Positions 17,280-25,465 of a DNA stretch of 39,993 bases are shown here, one piece after another. The notes below the pieces were generated by a model. The model did no database searches. It was not told where the DNA came from and saw only the letters and a list, made by a program, of their open reading frames with translations. Source of the stretch: a virus (taxonomy: Duplodnaviria; Heunggongvirae; Uroviricota; Caudoviricetes). A program made the position numbers and the translations under genes. The number at the start of each line of letters is the position of its first letter. Position 1 is the stretch's first letter. The DNA lies in the IMG/VR virus record IMGVR_UViG_2623620506_000005, positions 1 to 39,993 of that record. One strand, written 5' to 3'.

Positions 17280-17547
17280 CCTTCCCGGATTACTGAATGT
17301 GGCGTTATGCACGGTTATCGTGCTGACGCTCTTTTTTTATCGTCGCCGTGATTCCAGACATAAACCGCTGATGTCATGGCTGGCCTGGCTACTGATGCTG
17401 CTTTATGCCTTTGCACCACTCAGCTATCTGTGTGGTCGCCCGTTAGCGGCGAACTGGCTGGCGGTGGGGCTTAATCTGCTGTTCTGCGTGTTGGTGATTC
17501 GCGCACGCGGGAACGTTTCAAAAATCTTTGTATTACGAAGGCGCTGA
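17269..17547 (+). CDS. holin/antiholin-like membrane protein
   Basis: ATG 17269 (RBS GGTGGAGGAGG) overlapping the previous gene's end; 92 aa with 2-3 hydrophobic helices and basic C-terminus. Confidence 0.5.
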   Translation: MLSNLPGLLNVALCTVIVLTLFFYRRRDSRHKPLMSWLAWLLMLLYAFAPLSYLCGRPLAANWLAVGLNLLFCVLVIRARGNVSKIFVLRRR

Positions 17548-17548
17548 T

Positions 17549-18094
17549 ATGAAGTCGAAAGATGAAATTTTTGACGAAGTTCTGGGAAAAGAGGGCGGTT
17601 ACGTCAATCACCCGGATGATAAAGGCGGACCGACAAAATGGGGTATTACTGAAAAAGTTGCCCGTGCGCACGGATACCAGGGCGATATGCGTGATCTGAC
17701 GCGCGGACAGGCGCTGGAAATACTCGAGGCGGACTACTGGTATGGACCACGTTTTGACCAGGTGGCAGCGTTATCCCCTGATATTGCCGCAGAGTTGTGT
17801 GATACGGGCGTGAACATGGGGCCAACCGTGGCGTCAAAAATGCTTCAACGCTGGCTTAACGTTTTCAACCTGCGCGGGAAACTGTATCCGGATATGGATG
17901 CTGATGGACGCATCGGGCCGCGTACTCTTAATGCGCTACGGGCATATATGAAAAATCGTGGCAGGGATGGCGAACTGGTCTTACTAACCGCGCTGAACTG
18001 TACGCAGGGTGACCGTTATCTGGAGCTGGCAGAGAAACGCGAGGCCAACGAGTCGTTTGTCTATGGCTGGATGAAAGAACGCGTGGGAGTGTAG
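17549..18094 (+). CDS. endolysin, glycoside hydrolase family 108 with C-terminal peptidoglycan-binding domain
   Basis: GH108 signature LGKEGGYVNHPDDKGGPTKWGIT near the N-terminus; C-terminal region consistent with PG_binding_3. ATG 17549 preferred over 17528. Confidence 0.7.
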   Translation: MKSKDEIFDEVLGKEGGYVNHPDDKGGPTKWGITEKVARAHGYQGDMRDLTRGQALEILEADYWYGPRFDQVAALSPDIAAELCDTGVNMGPTVASKMLQRWLNVFNLRGKLYPDMDADGRIGPRTLNALRAYMKNRGRDGELVLLTALNCTQGDRYLELAEKREANESFVYGWMKERVGV

Positions 18095-18757: not shown

Positions 18758-18931
18758 TCGCCTGTAAGAGCAGAATATTTTGCTGAAAAATGAAGGATGC
18801 GCCGGCGTCCGGAAAGCATGAAATTCTGTGTTTGTGGCTACTCAATAAAATAAATTCTTTCTGTCGCCGCGAATACTCAAATGTTGATCAGCGCCCGGGG
18901 CGGTGACGGGCTTCGATATCAGGAGAAGATA

Positions 18932-19207
18932 ATGGAAAAGAAAGAAGACAAACCAATGGTAATTGGTGCTGTGGCTGTTCCGTTTAAGTTTGAACTGTCA
19001 CAACTGGTGGAGATGCGCATCAGTGATGAATGGGGTGAGGTTAAAGCTCGCGCGCAGTATGCGGATGGCGAAAACCAGTACTTGATCCACTACAAGGCTG
19101 CTGATGGTCGCGCCACAACGGCGTGGTTTGGTGAATCAATGCTGGAAGCAACAGAAGATGCTCGTCATCCGGGCTGTCCGGTATTTGCCTTCATGAAATT
19201 ACCGTAA
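18932..19207 (+). CDS. hypothetical protein
   Basis: ATG 18932 after AGGAG RBS; 91 aa; no family recognised. Confidence 0.45.
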   Translation: MEKKEDKPMVIGAVAVPFKFELSQLVEMRISDEWGEVKARAQYADGENQYLIHYKAADGRATTAWFGESMLEATEDARHPGCPVFAFMKLP

Positions 19208-19485
19208 GGTGCGGTAGTTAATGAGTAACAGGCATTACAGCAGCTCTTCAGCGAGGGGCTGCGATAATGTGAGGAATAAAAAACCGGCAGGGGAAATCCA
19301 TTGAAGATTTGCCGGTGGCGAAAGATGGCCATGTTTTTAACCTTAGTAGCAGAGTTACGGAGTGCAACAACGGATGCTGCCGGTATAGGACTGAATGGCG
19401 TTTCAATGATGTACATCATCTTATCCGCAAATTTCAATGATAAATGTTCTCATTTGCGCGGGTCCTTTCTGAAATCTGAAACACC

Positions 19486-19645
19486 GGGGGGCGGCAGACG
19501 CGCAAAAACGCGCTATTTATGAAAATTTTCAGGGAACCATGTCCGGTTTCCCTACTGGTTAACTATATGAAAAATATAAAAACAAGCTTTTTGTGAACCG
19601 GACATGTACAAAAAACGAACATGCAAACCGGACATGGGCGGTTTT
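19486..19645. other. candidate cos region (cosN-like GGGCGGCAGACG plus cosB-like repeated sites)
   Basis: GGGCGGCAGACG at 19489-19500 resembles the lambda cohesive end GGGCGGCGACCT; three copies of CCGGACATG (one inverted) at about 19546-19641, just upstream of the terminase small-subunit gene. Confidence 0.45.
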
Positions 19646-19680
19646 CTGATTGTGAGGTGAGAGTTTTTGCGAGGTAAGTC

Positions 19681-20190
19681 GTGGCTACGCAGACTGAAGT
19701 TGCCAGGCATTTGAGTCTGACCGATCGCCAGCTTCGCAGATTGCAGAAATTGCCTGGTGCCCCGGTCTCGAATAAACGGGGGCATCATGACTTGGATGCC
19801 TGGCGTGATTTTTACATATCGTATCTGAGGAGAAGTAAAAATGATGTGTCTGATGGTGATAGCGAAGAAGACTATGAAGAAAAATTACTTATCGCCAGAT
19901 GGAAATTGACTGAAGAACAGGCAATAGCACAGCAATTAAAAAATCAGGTAACTGAAGGCAGACTTATTGATTCAGGGTTTTGCGTTTTCGCTCTCAGCAA
20001 ACTGGCGATGGCATTGTCCAGTACGCTTGATTCCATTCCTTTATCCATGCAGCGACAGTTTCCGGATTTAACTCCGCGTCATATTGATCATCTGAAAACT
20101 CTTATCGCAAAGGGAGCGAATCAGTGCGCGCGGGCAGGGGATAAATTACCGGAGTTACTCGATGAATATATCCGAATTACAGCTGAATAA
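19681..20190 (+). CDS. nu1: terminase small subunit (lambda Nu1-like)
   Basis: GTG start with GAGGTAAG RBS; C-terminal half aligns with remembered lambda Nu1 (FCVFALSKLA...LSMQRQFPDL...LPELLDEYI). Confidence 0.8.
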   Translation: MATQTEVARHLSLTDRQLRRLQKLPGAPVSNKRGHHDLDAWRDFYISYLRRSKNDVSDGDSEEDYEEKLLIARWKLTEEQAIAQQLKNQVTEGRLIDSGFCVFALSKLAMALSSTLDSIPLSMQRQFPDLTPRHIDHLKTLIAKGANQCARAGDKLPELLDEYIRITAE

Positions 20191-22078
20191 TATGATGATC
20201 GCCGTCACAACCGCATTGCAGCCACTAATAAGGGCACTGCCGGTGACGCCAGTTGAATGGGCTGATCAAAATTATTATCTGCCTAAAGAGTCGTCATATG
20301 TTGATGGAGAATGGAAGACCCTGCCGTTTCAGGTTGCCATCATGAACAGCATGGGAAATGACCGGATCCGTACTGTTAATCTGATTAAATCGGCGCGTGT
20401 GGGTTACACCAAAATGCTGCTGGGCGTGGTTGGGTATTTTATTGAGCATAAATCCCGTAACAGCCTGCTCTTCCAGCCGACAGATTCTGCAGCTGAAGAT
20501 TTCATGAAAGCGCATGTGGAGGCTACGCTGCGGGATGTCCCCTGCCTTAAAGCGTTATCGCCATGGCTGGGAAGAAAGCACCGTGATAATACACTCACCC
20601 TGAAGCGTTTTTCCTCCGGCGTGGGGTTCTGGTGCCTGGGCGGTGCCGCAGCTAAAAACTACCGTGAAAAATCTGTGGATGTGGTCTGCTATGACGAACT
20701 CTCCTCGTTTGAACCGGATGTGGAAAAAGAAGGTTCGCCGACGCTTCTTGGCGATAAACGTATCGAAGGCTCGGTATGGCCTAAATCCATACGCGGTTCA
20801 ACGCCAAAAATTAAAGGTTCCTGTCAGATTGAGAAAGCCGCGAATGAATCTGCGCATTTCATGCGGTTTTATGTTCCTTGCCCTCATTGCGGGGAGACCC
20901 AGTATCTGAAGTTTGGCGATGATGCGACGCCGTTTGGCCTGAAATGGGAGAAGGGTAAACCGGAAACGGTGTATTACCTGTGTGAACACAATGGCTGTGT
21001 GATCCGCCAGTCGGAACTTGACCAGACCGACGGACGCTGGATTTGTGACAATACCGGGATGTGGACGTGTGACGGCCTGACATTTTACAGCGCCGGTGAT
21101 GAGGAGATACCGCCACCGCGCTCAATCACGTACCACGTGTGGACGGCGTACAGTCCGTTCACCACCTGGGTACAGATTGTTTATGACTGGCTGGATGCGC
21201 TGAAGGATCCGAACGGCGTCAAGACGTTTATTAACACCACGCTCGGAGAACCCTATGAAGAGGCCGTGGCAGAAAAGCTGAGTTTCGAGTTATTGCTGGA
21301 AAAGGTCTGTCACTATGGCGCGCAGGTTCCCCTGCGGGTGGTTTACCTGACTGCCGGGATCGACTCCCAGAAAGATCGCTATGAAATTTATGTCTGGGGC
21401 TGGGCTCCCGGCGAAGAAGCCTTTCTGATTGACAAGCAAATTATCATGGGGCGACCGGAAGACGAGGACACCCTTAAACGTGTTGATGCGGTGATCAGGA
21501 AAAAATACCTCCATGCTGACGGTACTGAAATTTCCATTTCCCGCGTCTGCTGGGATACCGGTGGTATCGACCAGGACATTGTGTATCAGCGTTCCAGAAA
21601 ACACGGCACTTTTTTTGTGCTTCCCATTAAAGGGGCATCGGTGTACGGCAAGCCGGTGATCACCATGCCCAAAAAGCGCAACCAGCGTGGGGTGTTTTTG
21701 TGTGAGGTGGGCTCTGATACCGTCAAGGAAATGCTGTACGCCCGTTTTGCCCTGCCGGTGGTCTCTGCCAGTGACGCCGCCCCGTATACCTTCCGTTTTC
21801 CGGATAACCCGGACATTTTTTCGGAAGAAGAGGCGCGTCAGATCGTGGCGGAAGAACTGGTGGAGAAGGTGGTTAATGGCAGGGTGAAACTGCTGTGGGA
21901 TAAAAAAGGGCGACGCAACGAAGCCCTAGACTGCCTGGTATATGCCTATGCTGCCCTGCGTATTTCAGTTCAGCGATGGCAGCTGGACCTTGAGGCACTG
22001 GCCCGGGCACGAAGAGACGAGCAGGACGAGGATGATATGAGTCTGGAAGAAATCGCGGCTGCACTGAGTGGAGGATAA
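20162..22078 (+). CDS. A: terminase large subunit (lambda gpA-like)
   Basis: 638 aa; overlaps the Nu1 3' end as in lambda; gpA-family features and position. Confidence 0.9.
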   Translation: MNISELQLNNMMIAVTTALQPLIRALPVTPVEWADQNYYLPKESSYVDGEWKTLPFQVAIMNSMGNDRIRTVNLIKSARVGYTKMLLGVVGYFIEHKSRNSLLFQPTDSAAEDFMKAHVEATLRDVPCLKALSPWLGRKHRDNTLTLKRFSSGVGFWCLGGAAAKNYREKSVDVVCYDELSSFEPDVEKEGSPTLLGDKRIEGSVWPKSIRGSTPKIKGSCQIEKAANESAHFMRFYVPCPHCGETQYLKFGDDATPFGLKWEKGKPETVYYLCEHNGCVIRQSELDQTDGRWICDNTGMWTCDGLTFYSAGDEEIPPPRSITYHVWTAYSPFTTWVQIVYDWLDALKDPNGVKTFINTTLGEPYEEAVAEKLSFELLLEKVCHYGAQVPLRVVYLTAGIDSQKDRYEIYVWGWAPGEEAFLIDKQIIMGRPEDEDTLKRVDAVIRKKYLHADGTEISISRVCWDTGGIDQDIVYQRSRKHGTFFVLPIKGASVYGKPVITMPKKRNQRGVFLCEVGSDTVKEMLYARFALPVVSASDAAPYTFRFPDNPDIFSEEEARQIVAEELVEKVVNGRVKLLWDKKGRRNEALDCLVYAYAALRISVQRWQLDLEALARARRDEQDEDDMSLEEIAAALSGG

Positions 22079-22081
22079 GTG

Positions 22082-22291
22082 ATGATTTATACACATGAGA
22101 TGCTTTGCGAAGCGCGTCGGGCGCTGCATGAACTGATGATAGGGCGTGCTGTGGCTTCTGTCAGTAAGAACGGACGACAGGTACAGTATTCGCGGGCGAC
22201 GATTAATGAATTACGGCGATATATTGAGGAAATTGAAAGTGCGCTTGGAATGTCCGGTCGTCGCCGTGGCCCTGCAGGAGTACGACTGTGA
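22082..22291 (+). CDS. W: head-tail joining protein W (lambda gpW-like)
   Basis: RALHELMIGRAVASVSKNGRQVQYS...RRRGPAG closely parallels lambda gpW; start at ATG 22082 (GTG 22079 also possible). Confidence 0.8.
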   Translation: MIYTHEMLCEARRALHELMIGRAVASVSKNGRQVQYSRATINELRRYIEEIESALGMSGRRRGPAGVRL

Positions 22292-23859
22292 GCGGGGGAC
22301 TGGTGGATCTTCACGGGCAACCTTTGCGGCAGAGTATGGGATATTCCGGCAGCGGCTCCGGATTCGGAGGGCAACTGGCTGAATGGTTGCCAGCACCGGA
22401 AAGTGCCGATGTGGCGCTCTTACCTTCCATTCAACTGGGTAACGCCCGTGCAGACGATCTGGTCCGTAACAACGGTATTGCCGCAAATGCTGTAGAAATT
22501 CATAAAGACCATATCGTCGGTCACATGTTTCGCCTGAGCTACCGACCCAACTGGCGCTGGCTGGGGATGTCAGAAGCTGATTCGCATGCCTTTATTGAAG
22601 ATGTGGAGGCGGCGTGGATGGAATATTGCGATCCGGTATTTGGTTCGATGGATGTGGAAGGGCGTCGCTCGTTTACCGAATTTATTCGTGAAGGGGTGGG
22701 GGTCCATACTTTTAACGGTGAAATTTTTGTCCAGCCCGTATGGGATACGGAATCCACGTCATTATTCAGAACAAAATTCAAGACCATCAGTCCGAAGCGC
22801 GTCAGCACGCCCGGTTATGGCATCGGCGATCGTTTTATGCGTGCCGGAGTGGAAATCAACCGTCACGGAAAGGCGATGGCTTATCATGTTCAGGACGATG
22901 ACTGGCCTGGCTACGGTGTCAGCAACTGGACACGGATTGCGGCGACGCTGCCCTCCGGGCGACCGGGAATGATCCATGTGTTTCAGCCGCAGGAGGACGG
23001 ACAGACGCGCGGGGCCAACCAGTTTTATTCCGTGATGGAGCGCCTCAAGATGCTCGACACACTACAGGCCACGCAACTGCAGTCGGCGGTGGTGCGGGCG
23101 ATGTATGCCGCGACGATTGAATCCACACTGGATTCGGAAAAAGCATTTGAATATATCGCCGGGGTGGGAGATGGCGGTAAAAATCCCCTGAACACCATCA
23201 TGAAAGGCTATGCGCGCTATTACGCCACCAATACGGTAAAGATGGGGGGGGTTCGTATTCCGCATCTTTATCCGGGGGATTCACTGAATCTGCAGACAGC
23301 ACAGAATGCGGATAATGGTTTTTCTGAACTGGAAAAGGCGCTGTTACGTTACATTGCTGCCGGACTGGGCGTGTCCTATGAGCAGCTTTCCCGCGATTAT
23401 TCACAGGTCAGTTATTCCAGTGCCAGAGCATCCGCCAATGAGTCGTGGCGGTATTTTATGGGGAAACGAAAATTTGTGGCCAGCCGACTGGCGTCACAGA
23501 TGTTTGCCTGCTGGCTGGAGGAAGCCCTTATTCGCGGTGTGATCCGCCCACCGAAATCCCGTTTCTCATTCTGGGAGGCCCGTTCCGGGTGGTGTCGTGC
23601 CGAGTGGATTGGTGCCGGCCGCATGGCGATTGATGGCCTTAAGGAGGTGCAGGAGGCGGTGATGCGTATTGAAGGTGGCCTGAGCACGTACGAGAAGGAG
23701 CTGGCCCTGATGGGTGATGACTATCAGGAGATTTTCCGCCAGCAACTGCGTGAAAGCCAGGAGCGACAGGCGGCTGGTCTTCCCCGCCCCATCTGGATAA
23801 AGGATACGTTTCAGCAGCAGATCCGACAGACAACGGGAGAAAAAGTCGATGCGTCGTAA
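22288..23859 (+). CDS. B: portal protein (lambda gpB-like)
   Basis: 523 aa; GTG start after GGAG; position after A/W and lambda-B-like length. Confidence 0.85.
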   Translation: MSGGLVDLHGQPLRQSMGYSGSGSGFGGQLAEWLPAPESADVALLPSIQLGNARADDLVRNNGIAANAVEIHKDHIVGHMFRLSYRPNWRWLGMSEADSHAFIEDVEAAWMEYCDPVFGSMDVEGRRSFTEFIREGVGVHTFNGEIFVQPVWDTESTSLFRTKFKTISPKRVSTPGYGIGDRFMRAGVEINRHGKAMAYHVQDDDWPGYGVSNWTRIAATLPSGRPGMIHVFQPQEDGQTRGANQFYSVMERLKMLDTLQATQLQSAVVRAMYAATIESTLDSEKAFEYIAGVGDGGKNPLNTIMKGYARYYATNTVKMGGVRIPHLYPGDSLNLQTAQNADNGFSELEKALLRYIAAGLGVSYEQLSRDYSQVSYSSARASANESWRYFMGKRKFVASRLASQMFACWLEEALIRGVIRPPKSRFSFWEARSGWCRAEWIGAGRMAIDGLKEVQEAVMRIEGGLSTYEKELALMGDDYQEIFRQQLRESQERQAAGLPRPIWIKDTFQQQIRQTTGEKVDAS

Positions 23860-25465
23860 TTTATCGCATATTGCCGCCATGGCATTTAATGAACCGCTTT
23901 TACTGGAGCCCGCCTATGCGCGGGTTTTCTTTTGCGCGCTGGGTAAAGAGATGGGGGCCGGCAGCCTTGCCGTTCCTCAGCAGGCTGTTCAGCTTGATGC
24001 TGACGGTATGCAACTGGCTGTGACTGACTATATGGCGGGCGGTCAGCGCCCGGCGAAGAGTTACCAGGTGAAGAATGGCATCGCCATTCTGCCAGTGAGC
24101 GGCACGCTGGTGCATAAACTGGGTACCCTGCGGCCTTACTCCGGCATGACAGGCTATGACGGTCTGACTGCTCGTCTTCAGATGGCGGTGAATGATCCGG
24201 ATGTGCGCGGCATTTTGCTGGATATCGACAGCCCAGGCGGTCAGGCTGCCGGGGCGTTTGACTGTGCTGACATGATTTACCGTCTGCGGGAACAGAAGCC
24301 CGTGTGGGCGCTGTGTAATGACATGGCCTGTTCAGCCGCCATGTTGCTGGCGGCAGCCTGTACCCGTCGGCTGGTCACGCAGACGGCAAAAATTGGTTCG
24401 ATTGGCGTGATGATGGCGCACACCAGTTATGAGAAACAACTGGCACAGGAAGGGGTGGACATCACGCTGATTTACTCCGGGCAGCACAAGGTTGACGGCA
24501 ACAGTATTCAGGCATTGCCGGCAGGTGTGCGTGCAGATTTTCAGCGCCGTATTGATGAGGCCCGCCGGATGTTTGTCGACAAGGTGGCGCTTTATACGGG
24601 GCTGAGTTCAGAGGCTTTGATGAATACCGAGGCTGCCGTTTATGACGGTCAGGCAGGCATTGATGCAGGCCTGGCTGATCAACTGATTAATGCTGCAGAT
24701 GCCGTTGAAGTGATGGTTTCTGCACTGAATGACTCTGTTACGAAGGAGAATGCAATGACTGTTAAAAATCTCACCGTTGCTGAAGCGGTGGCCCAGGAAA
24801 ATCAGCGCGTGATGGGGATCCTGAATTGTCAGGAGGCGAAAGGGCGCGAGCAACTGGCGCAAATGCTGGCAGGTCAGCCTGGAATGACGGTAGAGCAGGC
24901 GAAAGCGTTCCTGGCTGCTGTGCCTGCTGCCAGTGTGGCAAATACAGGTGATCAGATTATGGGGCTGCCGGAAGCAAAGGGGCGTGAGCAACTGGCACAG
25001 ATGCTGGCAGGTCAGCCGGGGATGACGGTGGAGCAGGCGAAAGCGTTTCTGGCGGCAGCCCCTGCTGCTGGTGCTGCAGGCACAGGCGATCAGATTATGG
25101 CGTTACCGGAAGCAAAAGGGCGTGAACAACTCGCGCAGGCGCTGGCTGAACAGCCGGGAATGACCGTTGACCAGGCCAAAACGTTACTGGCGGCGGCACC
25201 GGTTGCTGGTTCTGCAAGTGTCGGCGATCAGATTATGGCGCTGCCGGAGGCAAAAGGGCGCGAGCAACTTGCACAGGCACTGACAGAACAACCGGGAATG
25301 ACGGTGGCGCAGGCGAAAACGCTGCTGGCAGCCGCGCCGGCGGCATCGCAACCGTCACAGGAAACACTTTTTGATCGCTTTATGGCACAGCATGCTGCCA
25401 GTGCGGTTTCCGGTGGCGGAACTGCCGGGCGCGGGGAGGAAGACCTGCTGATGAGTATGCCGTAA
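23849..25465 (+). CDS. C: head maturation protease / scaffold (lambda gpC-like S49 peptidase with repeat-containing C-terminal region)
   Basis: 538 aa; ClpP/S49-like N-terminal half; C-terminal region has four tandem 46-aa repeats. Confidence 0.85.
   Translation: MRRNLSHIAAMAFNEPLLLEPAYARVFFCALGKEMGAGSLAVPQQAVQLDADGMQLAVTDYMAGGQRPAKSYQVKNGIAILPVSGTLVHKLGTLRPYSGMTGYDGLTARLQMAVNDPDVRGILLDIDSPGGQAAGAFDCADMIYRLREQKPVWALCNDMACSAAMLLAAACTRRLVTQTAKIGSIGVMMAHTSYEKQLAQEGVDITLIYSGQHKVDGNSIQALPAGVRADFQRRIDEARRMFVDKVALYTGLSSEALMNTEAAVYDGQAGIDAGLADQLINAADAVEVMVSALNDSVTKENAMTVKNLTVAEAVAQENQRVMGILNCQEAKGREQLAQMLAGQPGMTVEQAKAFLAAVPAASVANTGDQIMGLPEAKGREQLAQMLAGQPGMTVEQAKAFLAAAPAAGAAGTGDQIMALPEAKGREQLAQALAEQPGMTVDQAKTLLAAAPVAGSASVGDQIMALPEAKGREQLAQALTEQPGMTVAQAKTLLAAAPAASQPSQETLFDRFMAQHAASAVSGGGTAGRGEEDLLMSMP
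24833..25350 (+). repeat. tandem direct repeat, about 138 bp x 3.7 copies, inside the protease/scaffold gene
   Basis: Unit EAKGREQLAQMLAGQPGMTVEQAKAFLAAxPAA...GDQIM(A/G)LP starts at 24833, 24971, 25109, 25247 (last copy partial). Confidence 0.85.

Follow-up and report, generated by a model that had tools for sequence, protein, structure and literature searches.

The virus record IMGVR_UViG_2623620506_000005 (Caudoviricetes), analysed here over positions 1-39,993 and referred to below as the window, is a lambdoid Escherichia coli prophage, and the 601 bp around the site that concerns us are 99.8% identical to the chromosome of E. coli STEC409. Between the lysis genes and a Nu1/gpA terminase pair of this prophage lies a segment (19460-19680) which, as judged from its sequence, is very probably the cos site of a lambda-like prophage and would work, by analogy, as lambda's cos does. 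The segment carries three exact copies of an 11-nt box, AACCGGACATG, arranged like the R elements of lambda cosB, and in relatives of the window these boxes vary together with the predicted DNA-binding domain (DBD) of the small terminase subunit, TerS. [quoted passage not shown] Beside these, boxes of the form AACCGGA(C/A)AT, paired with a TerS domain of the MATQxEVAxHL type, may constitute a fifth packaging-specificity class, a proposal that we regard as tentative and as possible rather than probable.

Layout and conservation of the probable cos region

Since the likeness of the presumed cohesive end to that of lambda is not significant by itself, the argument for a cos site rests on the surrounding context: a GGGTCCT heptamer lies 29 bp upstream, a 20-mer identical to lambda's occupies the same position as in lambda, and the Nu1- and gpA-type genes follow directly downstream. 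In the relative numbering used here, 19489 is bp 1. The cosQ-like heptamer GGGTCCT (19460-19466, plus strand) occupies -29 to -23 from the predicted top-strand nick, compared with -30 to -24 in lambda. The predicted cosN core is followed by an I2-like block, CGCTATTTATGAAAATTTTC (19511-19530, plus strand), a perfect match to lambda bp 23-42 in both sequence and relative position. The first of the three boxes, the R3-like copy (19538-19548, bp 50-60), lies on the minus strand and reads CATGTCCGGTT on the top strand; the R2-like copy (19596-19606, bp 108-118) is on the plus strand and thus inverted relative to R3-like, and the R1-like copy (19626-19636, bp 138-148), also on the plus strand, is a direct repeat 30 bp downstream of R2-like. 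All three are exact. Between R3-like and R2-like lies a predicted IHF site, the I1-like element TAACTATATGAAA (19560-19572, plus strand, bp 72-84), which has two mismatches to the consensus YAANNNNTTGATW and is homologous in position to lambda I1 (TAACTTAATGTTT, bp 74-86).

The resulting order, cosQ-cosN-I2-R3-I1-R2-R1, is that of lambda, and the coordinates are nearly identical. I2 spans bp 23-42 in both; R3 lies at bp 50-65 in lambda (PMC9026076) and at bp 50-60 in the window, I1 at 74-91 and 72-84, the lambda R2 core at 114-120 and the R2-like box at 108-118, the lambda R1 core at 155-161 and the R1-like box at 138-148, and the TerS start at bp 191 and 193, respectively. The cosQ heptamer and the I2 20-mer are identical in the two phages, and in both R3 and R2 are inverted about an IHF-type site. 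Together with the conserved geometry in 12 diverged relatives and the co-variation of boxes and TerS DBD described below, this lambda-matching layout supports the original prediction that the region comprises the equivalents of cosN and cosB.

The boxes stand out from the background of the window. At one mismatch or fewer, AACCGGACATG has four matches in the window compared with 0.81 expected, a number reached by none of 100 shuffles, and an independent, blind repeat search also recovers the boxes, reporting R3-like and R2-like as an 11-nt inverted pair with 100% complementarity. The repeat search additionally lists a degenerate fourth copy, AAACGAACATG (19613-19623, plus strand), which matches the box at 9/11 positions and may be a relic; its ACATG part recurs in many E. 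coli-type loci and is not found in Enterobacter. A box search of the window detected no further copy beyond these that might correspond to the remote rR2 of a simple cosB. The boxes had initially been described as one inverted and two direct copies, all within 100 bp of the Nu1-like start. Their number and orientation stand, as does the start of the second direct copy, then given as 19626-19641, for which the box itself is 19626-19636; the coordinates of the other two were 8-9 nt too high and become 19538-19548 instead of 19546-19561 for the inverted copy and 19596-19606 instead of 19605-19619 for the first direct copy. The stated distance holds for the two direct copies and not for the inverted one, which lies 133-143 bp upstream of the GTG at 19681.

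The elements, their positions, their conservation and their co-variation with TerS can be read directly from the sequences and their comparison. The close set of relatives, comprising eighty IMG/VR loci, the EDL933 prophage and the PhiR12 phages, with TerS proteins 88-99% identical to that of the window, carries the same three boxes throughout. For box counts, 28 distinct E. coli-type cosB sequences were used: the exact box is present at R3 in all of them (28/28), at R2 in 25/28 and at R1 in 18/28, the R3-R2 offset is 54 bp in 28/28, and the R2-R1 offset is 30 bp except in one sequence, where it is 29 bp. This gradient of conservation from R3 through R2 to R1 matches the published hierarchy of lambda cosB, in which R3 is critical and R1 accessory (PMC9026076; PMC4669245).

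Through protein searches and contig look-ups, we also gathered diverged relatives, whose TerS proteins are 60-83% identical to that of the window and whose sources are Klebsiella, three subspecies of Salmonella, Citrobacter, two species of Enterobacter and further E. coli; in the set of 12 compared for geometry, TerS identity spans 60-88%. Their upstream regions align with that of the window only in islands, namely cosQ, the cosN edges, I2, the R3 core TCCGGTT, a TAA....TTGA element and the R2 core AACCGGA, and the spacers between the cosB elements are not conserved. The cosQ heptamer, which is present in Pseudomonas phage Y8 as well, and the R3 core are each invariant in 12/12, the I2 core TTATGA(A/G)AATTT is kept in 12/12, and R3 and R2 are 54 bp apart in 12/12; the I2-R3 distance is 25 bp, or 26 bp in one. 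A match to the IHF consensus YAANNNNTTGATW occurs at +18 from the R3 core in 11 of the 12, without any mismatch in five. R1 is present in five of these relatives and absent from seven, a patchiness which, like its exact presence in only 18 of the 28 E. coli-type sequences, fits an accessory role. Between the last box and the start of TerS, relatives have anything from 37 to 88 bp; the geometry is hence tied to cosN and not to where the gene begins.

At still greater distance, TerS proteins with an N-terminal domain of the same type occur in phage 705R4, Pseudomonas phage Y8, Aeromonas phage PhAER-2 and a metagenomic contig (L104; L numbers denote collected loci), with 26-42% identity over the whole protein. 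In these distant relatives (705R4, L007; Y8, L102; PhAER-2, L103; and L104) a single TTTCCGGTT element at the R3 position directly precedes the TerS start. This element, TTTCCGGTTCCGGT(T), is made up of two overlapping TTCCGG units and is accompanied by neither an IHF site nor an R2; the distant Pseudomonas and Aeromonas relatives have thus retained no box other than R3-like. The pairing of a simple cosB in N15 with a complex one in Monarch is thereby paralleled, with single-element distant relatives on one side and the enterobacterial R3-I1-R2 arrangement, with or without R1, on the other. The end of the linear PhAER-2 record falls 2 nt away from the homologous nick position, and the first base of contig L104 lies within cosN; these record ends give only a hint that they reflect real DNA ends.

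The predicted 12-nt 5' cohesive end, GGGCGGCAGACG (19489-19500, plus strand), was located by aligning the region to lambda and to the phage cdtI record. A lambda-like 12-mer had been read at exactly these positions in the original prediction, with its differences from lambda's GGGCGGCGACCT confined to the last five bases, and both points were confirmed: the first 7 nt match, and the two sequences differ at positions 8, 9, 10 and 12. As evidence for a cos site, however, the likeness of the 12-mer was dropped, because matches to the lambda 12-mer at three mismatches or fewer are at chance level in the window (31 found, 31.4 expected) and the site itself, with four mismatches, falls outside that list.

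At the overhang position, 22 different 12-mers occur across the collected loci. In the window, 19489-19503 reads GGGCGGCAGACG followed by CGC, and both the initial G1 and G2 and the following C13, G14 and C15 are constant across related loci. A variant class of cosN is characterised by the flanks ACACCGGG and CGCAAAAAC (ACACCG[GA]G, 12 nt, CGCAAAAACGCGC; window 19481-19509; also L007, L010-L013, L105 and L117-L134), and within it at least 14 different overhangs are found; overhang positions 1, 2, 10, 11 and 12 are constant in this class and positions 3-9 are variable. Positions 4 and 9 co-vary, as C/G or, in GGTACGCGTACG, GGTACGTGTACG and GGTAGGCATACG, as A/T, with one exception, and some overhangs, among them GGTACGCGTACG, are near-perfect palindromes. 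Taken with G2/C11 and the G/C pair at -1/+13, the co-variation of positions 4 and 9 places the dyad centre between 19494 and 19495, which is the centre expected for nicks between 19488 and 19489 on the top strand and between 19500 and 19501 on the bottom strand. By manual count, 5 of 11 symmetric pairs of cosN match, the same number as in lambda. Furthermore, the cdtI record, whose right arm is 84% identical to window 19169-19467, starts at GGGCGGGAGCGT, with its first base aligning with 19489 and its last base with 19488. Among IMG/VR contigs with the window-type (class-B) flank, none ends at cos.

These alignments make the nick positions just given probable, although we hold this assignment with moderate confidence because three details weigh against it: the 12-mer of the window is unique among the collected loci, the G that it has at position 3 departs from the T3/A10 symmetry seen in most of the flank class, and cosQ lies 1 bp nearer the predicted nick than in lambda. 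The nick positions accordingly carry an uncertainty of ~1 nt. Variant cos ends are in practice inferred by homology (PMC12315714), and bp 7-12 of the overhang commonly differ among lambda-like phages (PMC4669245). An alternative reading is that the site is a working cos with a different cut, for example shifted by 1 nt so as to give GGCGGCAGACGC or producing a longer end that starts in the run of six G at 19486-19491. This run makes the top-strand nick ambiguous by sequence, the spacing of cosQ to the nick is 29 rather than 30 bp, and to either side of the nicks the flank class is unlike lambda's, all of which a shifted cut would accommodate. Such a shift is nevertheless unlikely, given that towards cosB, to which terminase is anchored, the spacing equals that of lambda (I2 at bp 23-42, R3 from bp 50), that both the dyad centre and the pattern of constant and variable positions in the 12-mers agree with the 12-nt register, and that the boundary of the cdtI record coincides with the predicted top-strand nick.

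The same peculiarities of the 12-mer, which is unique among the 22 variants, might instead mark a region that descends from cos and persists as a non-functional relic in a defective prophage, its variant cosN GGGCGGCAGACG or its weak IHF site being unused. The I1-like site of the window has two mismatches where relatives have none or one, making it the weakest of the set and a further point that counts against a functional cos; the whole 601-bp region is found in only 6 E. coli genomes; and many O157 prophages of this family are defective (PMC2669165). Against this reading, TerS, the large terminase TerL, gpW and the portal are all full-length open reading frames (ORFs) with strong family matches, none of the three boxes has a mismatch, and no damage is seen in cosQ, I2 or the flanks of cosN. 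Lambda's own I1 is no better than one to two mismatches from the consensus, and overhangs normally vary within this group, a variation that lambda-like phages tolerate (PMC4669245). We therefore consider a relic improbable and retain the reading of 19460-19680 as a lambda-like cos site.

One further feature of cosN deserves mention, a 9-nt perfect inverted repeat formed by its right flank, CGCAAAAAC (19501-19509), and GTTTTTGCG (19663-19671) in the ribosome-binding region of TerS. This pairing is probably coincidental, as loci that have lambda's cosN share the downstream arm.

The R-like boxes and the predicted DNA-binding domain of TerS

TerS, a Nu1-family protein of 169 aa with a GTG start (19681-20190, plus strand), is homologous to lambda's over its C-terminal two-thirds (46% identity over TerS residues 73-164). 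Pfam Phage_Nu1 matches residues 49-150 only, with the profile aligned from position 62 onward, and tblastn alignments of TerS to lambda, 21, N15, phi80 and Gifsy-1 cover only residues ~64-165, from which it follows that the N-terminal 60 residues belong to a different sequence class. Residues 1-57 are predicted to fold as a winged helix-turn-helix (wHTH) DBD. An AlphaFold2 model of residues 1-60, built from 15 sequences (predicted local distance difference test score, pLDDT, 80; predicted template modelling score, pTM, 0.62), has a strand, helices at residues 4-10 and 15-22, a wing with two short strands and a helix at 38-57. Its best Foldseek matches, with template modelling (TM) scores of 0.5-0.68, are the RdfS excisionase, RacA, the TerS DBDs 7LXS/7LWR/7LW0, chain B of 6HN7 and regulators of the MerR family; 6HN7 is the entry deposited with the paper on Rpp and TerS of phage-inducible chromosomal islands (PICIs). 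A model of full-length TerS (pTM 0.32) gave weak fold matches, and a sequence search of TerS against solved structures returned noise only, with no gpNu1 hit.

In its boxes and in this domain, the window appears to differ from the lambda, 21, N15/Monarch and Gifsy-1 classes. Three experimental specificities, those of lambda, 21 and N15, are documented by the Feiss laboratory, which also describes complex cosB sites for phi80, 21, Gifsy-1 and Monarch (PMC9026076; PMC4669245). The lambda R boxes, CGTTTCC(G/T)TTCT, do not occur in window 19489-19680, where AACCGGACATG stands instead; the lambda cosN flanks and overhang (bp 8, 9, 10, 12) are also different, and the lambda Nu1 DBD shows no BLAST or Pfam similarity to the window DBD and an hhalign probability of 8%. 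At the middle position of the recognition helix, lambda has Asn and the window Arg (R20). The N15/Monarch R boxes, GGTTGTTGTTT, and the accompanying DBD (MAVLLNKSDMASS...) are found in N15 and in the E. albertii loci L090/L091 and not in the window, and the Gifsy-1 box, AGATCC(G/T)TTC, is likewise unlike the window's. The window also departs from lambda and 21 in the direction of R1, which is opposite to R2 in those phages and the same as R2 here; in the complex cosB of lambda, 21, phi80 and Gifsy-1, R1 is oriented like R3 and opposite to R2 (PMC9026076). Given that R1 is accessory in lambda, its orientation in the window does not exclude membership of the wider lambda-like group.

In what it appears to read, the box class of the window is closest to that of phage 21. 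The R boxes of 21 (GenBank M81255) are AATCGTGTCGGTACTT at R3, AAGGTCCGACATGAAA at R2 and TTTCATGTCGGGCCTT at R1, and their core, CATGTCGG or CGTGTCGG, equals the window core CATGTCCGG minus one C. The cores are in the same orientation and at similar places, with R3 at bp 53-60 and R2 at 112-119 in 21 compared with 50-58 and 110-118 in the window, and in the hhalign register of the recognition helices R17, R21 and Q23 of 21 align with R16, R20 and Q22 of the window. The window nevertheless lacks the phage 21 core C(A/G)TGTCGG, having the extra C in 3/3 copies, and lacks a DBD of the gp1 type, and the additional base pair in the core makes cross-recognition between the two unlikely. Phage 21 moreover has lambda's cosN, whereas the window belongs to a different cosN flank class.

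Within the proposed class, box and protein vary in concert. All box copies within a genome carry the same base at position 8, and this base corresponds to the residue at TerS position 20, which sits in the second helix of the predicted helix-turn-helix. In seven loci (the window, EDL933, L018, Citrobacter, E. kobei, E. hormaechei and S. diarizonae) residue 20 is Arg and the boxes read AACCGGA-C-AT; in nine (Klebsiella, E. coli L105, S. salamae, Salmonella L096, L109, 705R4, Y8, PhAER-2 and L104) it is Asp or Asn and the boxes read AACCGGA-A-(A/G)T or AACCGGA-A-AC.

Several considerations weigh against the reading of these boxes as TerS sites of a lambda-like cos. The boxes and the codon for residue 20 are less than 200 bp apart, so their co-inheritance is explained in part by linkage, and the correlation of residue 20 with position 8 may represent a single ancestral switch. 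The structural and profile comparisons are also of limited strength, with every Foldseek match at an E-value above 0.1, such that the wHTH assignment is reasonable but not strong, and the DBD profile matching gp1 of 21 with an hhalign probability of only 13% and ~28% identity over 29 residues. On the other hand, two to three separated copies change together while the spacers between them drift, which argues for a common ligand.

A similar picture emerges from loci in which modules have been exchanged. The E. albertii prophages L090 and L091 combine the C-terminus of this TerS (72% identity from residue 26) and lambda's cosN with a DBD of the N15/Monarch type, and their boxes, located where R3, R2 and R1 are expected, are GGTTGTTGTTT. 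Conversely, the cosN flank class of the window is joined in different loci to four box/TerS pairs, namely the Gifsy-1 type (AGATCCGTTC), the 21 type (CATGTCGG), the window type and the Asp20 type. From such swaps it follows that cosB and the TerS DBD move together as one module, whatever the cosN and the remainder of TerS. The I2 block CGCTATTTATGAAAATTTTC, the equivalent of which is annotated as IHF site I2 in phage 21 and labelled IHF in PMC2669165 Fig S8, is common to these otherwise different cos modules (L117-L134, L090-L091), and with one cosN class joined to four box/TerS types it looks like a recombination junction between cosN and cosB/TerS classes.

The CCGGACATG boxes might instead be bound by some different protein, for instance a regulator of late genes from host or phage, or be functionless inherited repeats: they lie in the 5' leader of the terminase operon, a place open to regulation, and linkage alone could hold them and the 5' end of TerS together. 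This is highly improbable, for their position and 54-bp spacing are fixed relative to cosN and not to the point where TerS starts, every copy varies in step with the recognition helix of TerS, other DBD classes swap their boxes at the same positions, a promoter scan of 19100-19800 found no promoter-like site, Rfam returned no match competing for the cos region, and the layout reproduces that of cosB as defined by experiment in lambda and 21.

Distribution and gene neighbourhood

The cosB/TerS module has matches in 1287 of 5426 complete E. coli genomes (~24%), typically over window 19511-19900 at 87-90% identity. The earlier suggestion that the box sequence is specific to the Nu1 protein of this phage is contradicted by these matches and by the presence of the box in the Sakai prophages Sp4 and Sp14. 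Sp4/Sp14, the CP-933 homologues of EDL933 and the PhiR12 phages have TerS proteins 88% identical to that of the window together with the same three boxes, I1 and I2; unlike the window, prophages of the Sakai Sp4/Sp14 type carry lambda's exact cosN, GGGCGGCGACCT, with lambda flanks. [quoted passage not shown] In the same study, Sp4 DNA was detected in phage particles, and its packaging was attributed to the terminase of Sp14 (PMC2669165). The PhiR12 phages, which carry the same module, were grown on K-12 or E. coli C; a literature search for a PhiR12 source paper with functional evidence found nothing. A full-text search for the box sequence, whose coverage excludes most subscription journals, returned only unrelated p53 and primer matches. 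The recognition class is common in E. coli, and within the coverage of that search we found no description of it.

Lambda keeps its cos at the equivalent place in gene order. In the window, a GH108 endolysin gene (17528-18094) upstream of the cos region is followed by small lysis-region ORFs, ~470 bp of non-coding DNA and the small terminase gene. TerL, a gpA-family protein of 638 aa (20162-22078, plus strand) predicted to nick cosN, matches Pfam GpA_ATPase (1.7e-53) and GpA_nuclease (3.5e-67) and is 64% identical to lambda gpA and 82% identical to TerL of the EDL933 prophage. It is followed by genes for gpW (22079-22291), a portal of the lambda family (22288-23859) and an S49 protease/scaffold protein (23849-25465).

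For a comparison of TerL with the cosN flank, the TerL of phage 705R4, 45% identical to that of the window, was the sole further representative of the same flank class used. The LT-IIb toxin prophage SerU-LTIIb (L110, KU052038) was considered as a further source of a class-B TerL and set aside, being a prophage remnant without one. In this remnant a coding sequence annotated as 'NU1-like protein' (locus 62-280) overlaps the cos region; the real small terminase lies 3' of it and is followed directly by tail-fibre genes, with no large terminase. Compared with its EDL933 homologue (L112), TerL of the window is a mosaic, 92-100% identical over the first ~250 residues and 60-80% over the rest, which suggests a recombination junction inside the ATPase domain.

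Several additional features of the neighbourhood were observed. Just 5' of cos lies an ORF of 108 aa (18881-19207) without a Pfam match; window 19001-19269, which overlaps its 3' end, has 93% DNA identity to phage phiP27, and shorter stretches are ~76% identical to the Yersinia phages vB_YpM_41 and vB_YpM_44, a distribution that suggests a mobile unit between the lysis genes and cos. A minus-strand ORF of 78 aa (19552-19788) overlaps cosB and the TerS start and is most likely a spurious call over the cos region; a stretch homologous to it is annotated as a hypothetical protein in phage PhiR12_1 (L002 1501-1623). An Rfam hit to glmS inside the TerS gene (E=1) was discarded. Finally, the C-terminal half of the S49 protease/scaffold gene, at the position of C/Nu3 in lambda, contains a tandem repeat of 138 bp (46 aa) with 3.6 copies at 80% identity (24832-25329), the units of which encode LPEAKGREQLAQ...GMTVEQAK....

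A model of packaging initiation and its implications

By analogy with lambda, we infer the following sequence of events, in which TerS binding, IHF bending, the nick positions and the specificity are all to be read as predictions. The N-terminal wHTH of TerS would bind as a dimer to the inverted pair formed by the R3-like (19538-19548) and R2-like (19596-19606) boxes, which a bend introduced by IHF at 19560-19572 would bring together, with the R1-like box (19626-19636) serving as an accessory site. The TerS-cosB complex would then anchor the gpA-type TerL on cosN, where staggered nicks at about 19488/19489 (top) and 19500/19501 (bottom) would generate the 12-nt 5' end GGGCGGCAGACG, and cosQ (19460-19466) would serve the termination of the preceding packaging run. 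Packaging specificity would be set by the box sequence together with the TerS recognition helix (residues ~14-23, TDRQLRRLQK). We further speculate that the highly variable 12-nt ends act as compatibility tags that limit cyclisation across the cos sites of different prophages.

Taken alone, the window is ordinary, a lambda-like cos found where it is expected in a lambda-like prophage. The class is of somewhat greater interest, as pathogenic E. coli carry it in abundance and as it provides a simple rule, open to testing, that relates a residue to a base. If the proposal is correct, one residue of TerS, residue 20 (Arg as opposed to Asp/Asn), would act as a switch that reads position 8 of the box (C as opposed to A), and the class would add to the lambda/21 system a natural specificity pair, Arg20 with C8 and Asp/Asn20 with A8. 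It would also rank among the commonest classes in E. coli, and several O157 prophages resident in the same cell have it in common.

Which of the prophages, satellites and hybrids in a cell can be packaged by a given terminase depends on packaging specificity. Enterohaemorrhagic E. coli (EHEC) carry many lambda-like prophages that exchange virulence genes, and such specificity hence bears on the movement of those genes. A rule based on the box sequence and the TerS recognition helix would allow cross-packaging, for example that of Sakai Sp4 attributed to the terminase of Sp14, to be predicted from genome sequences.

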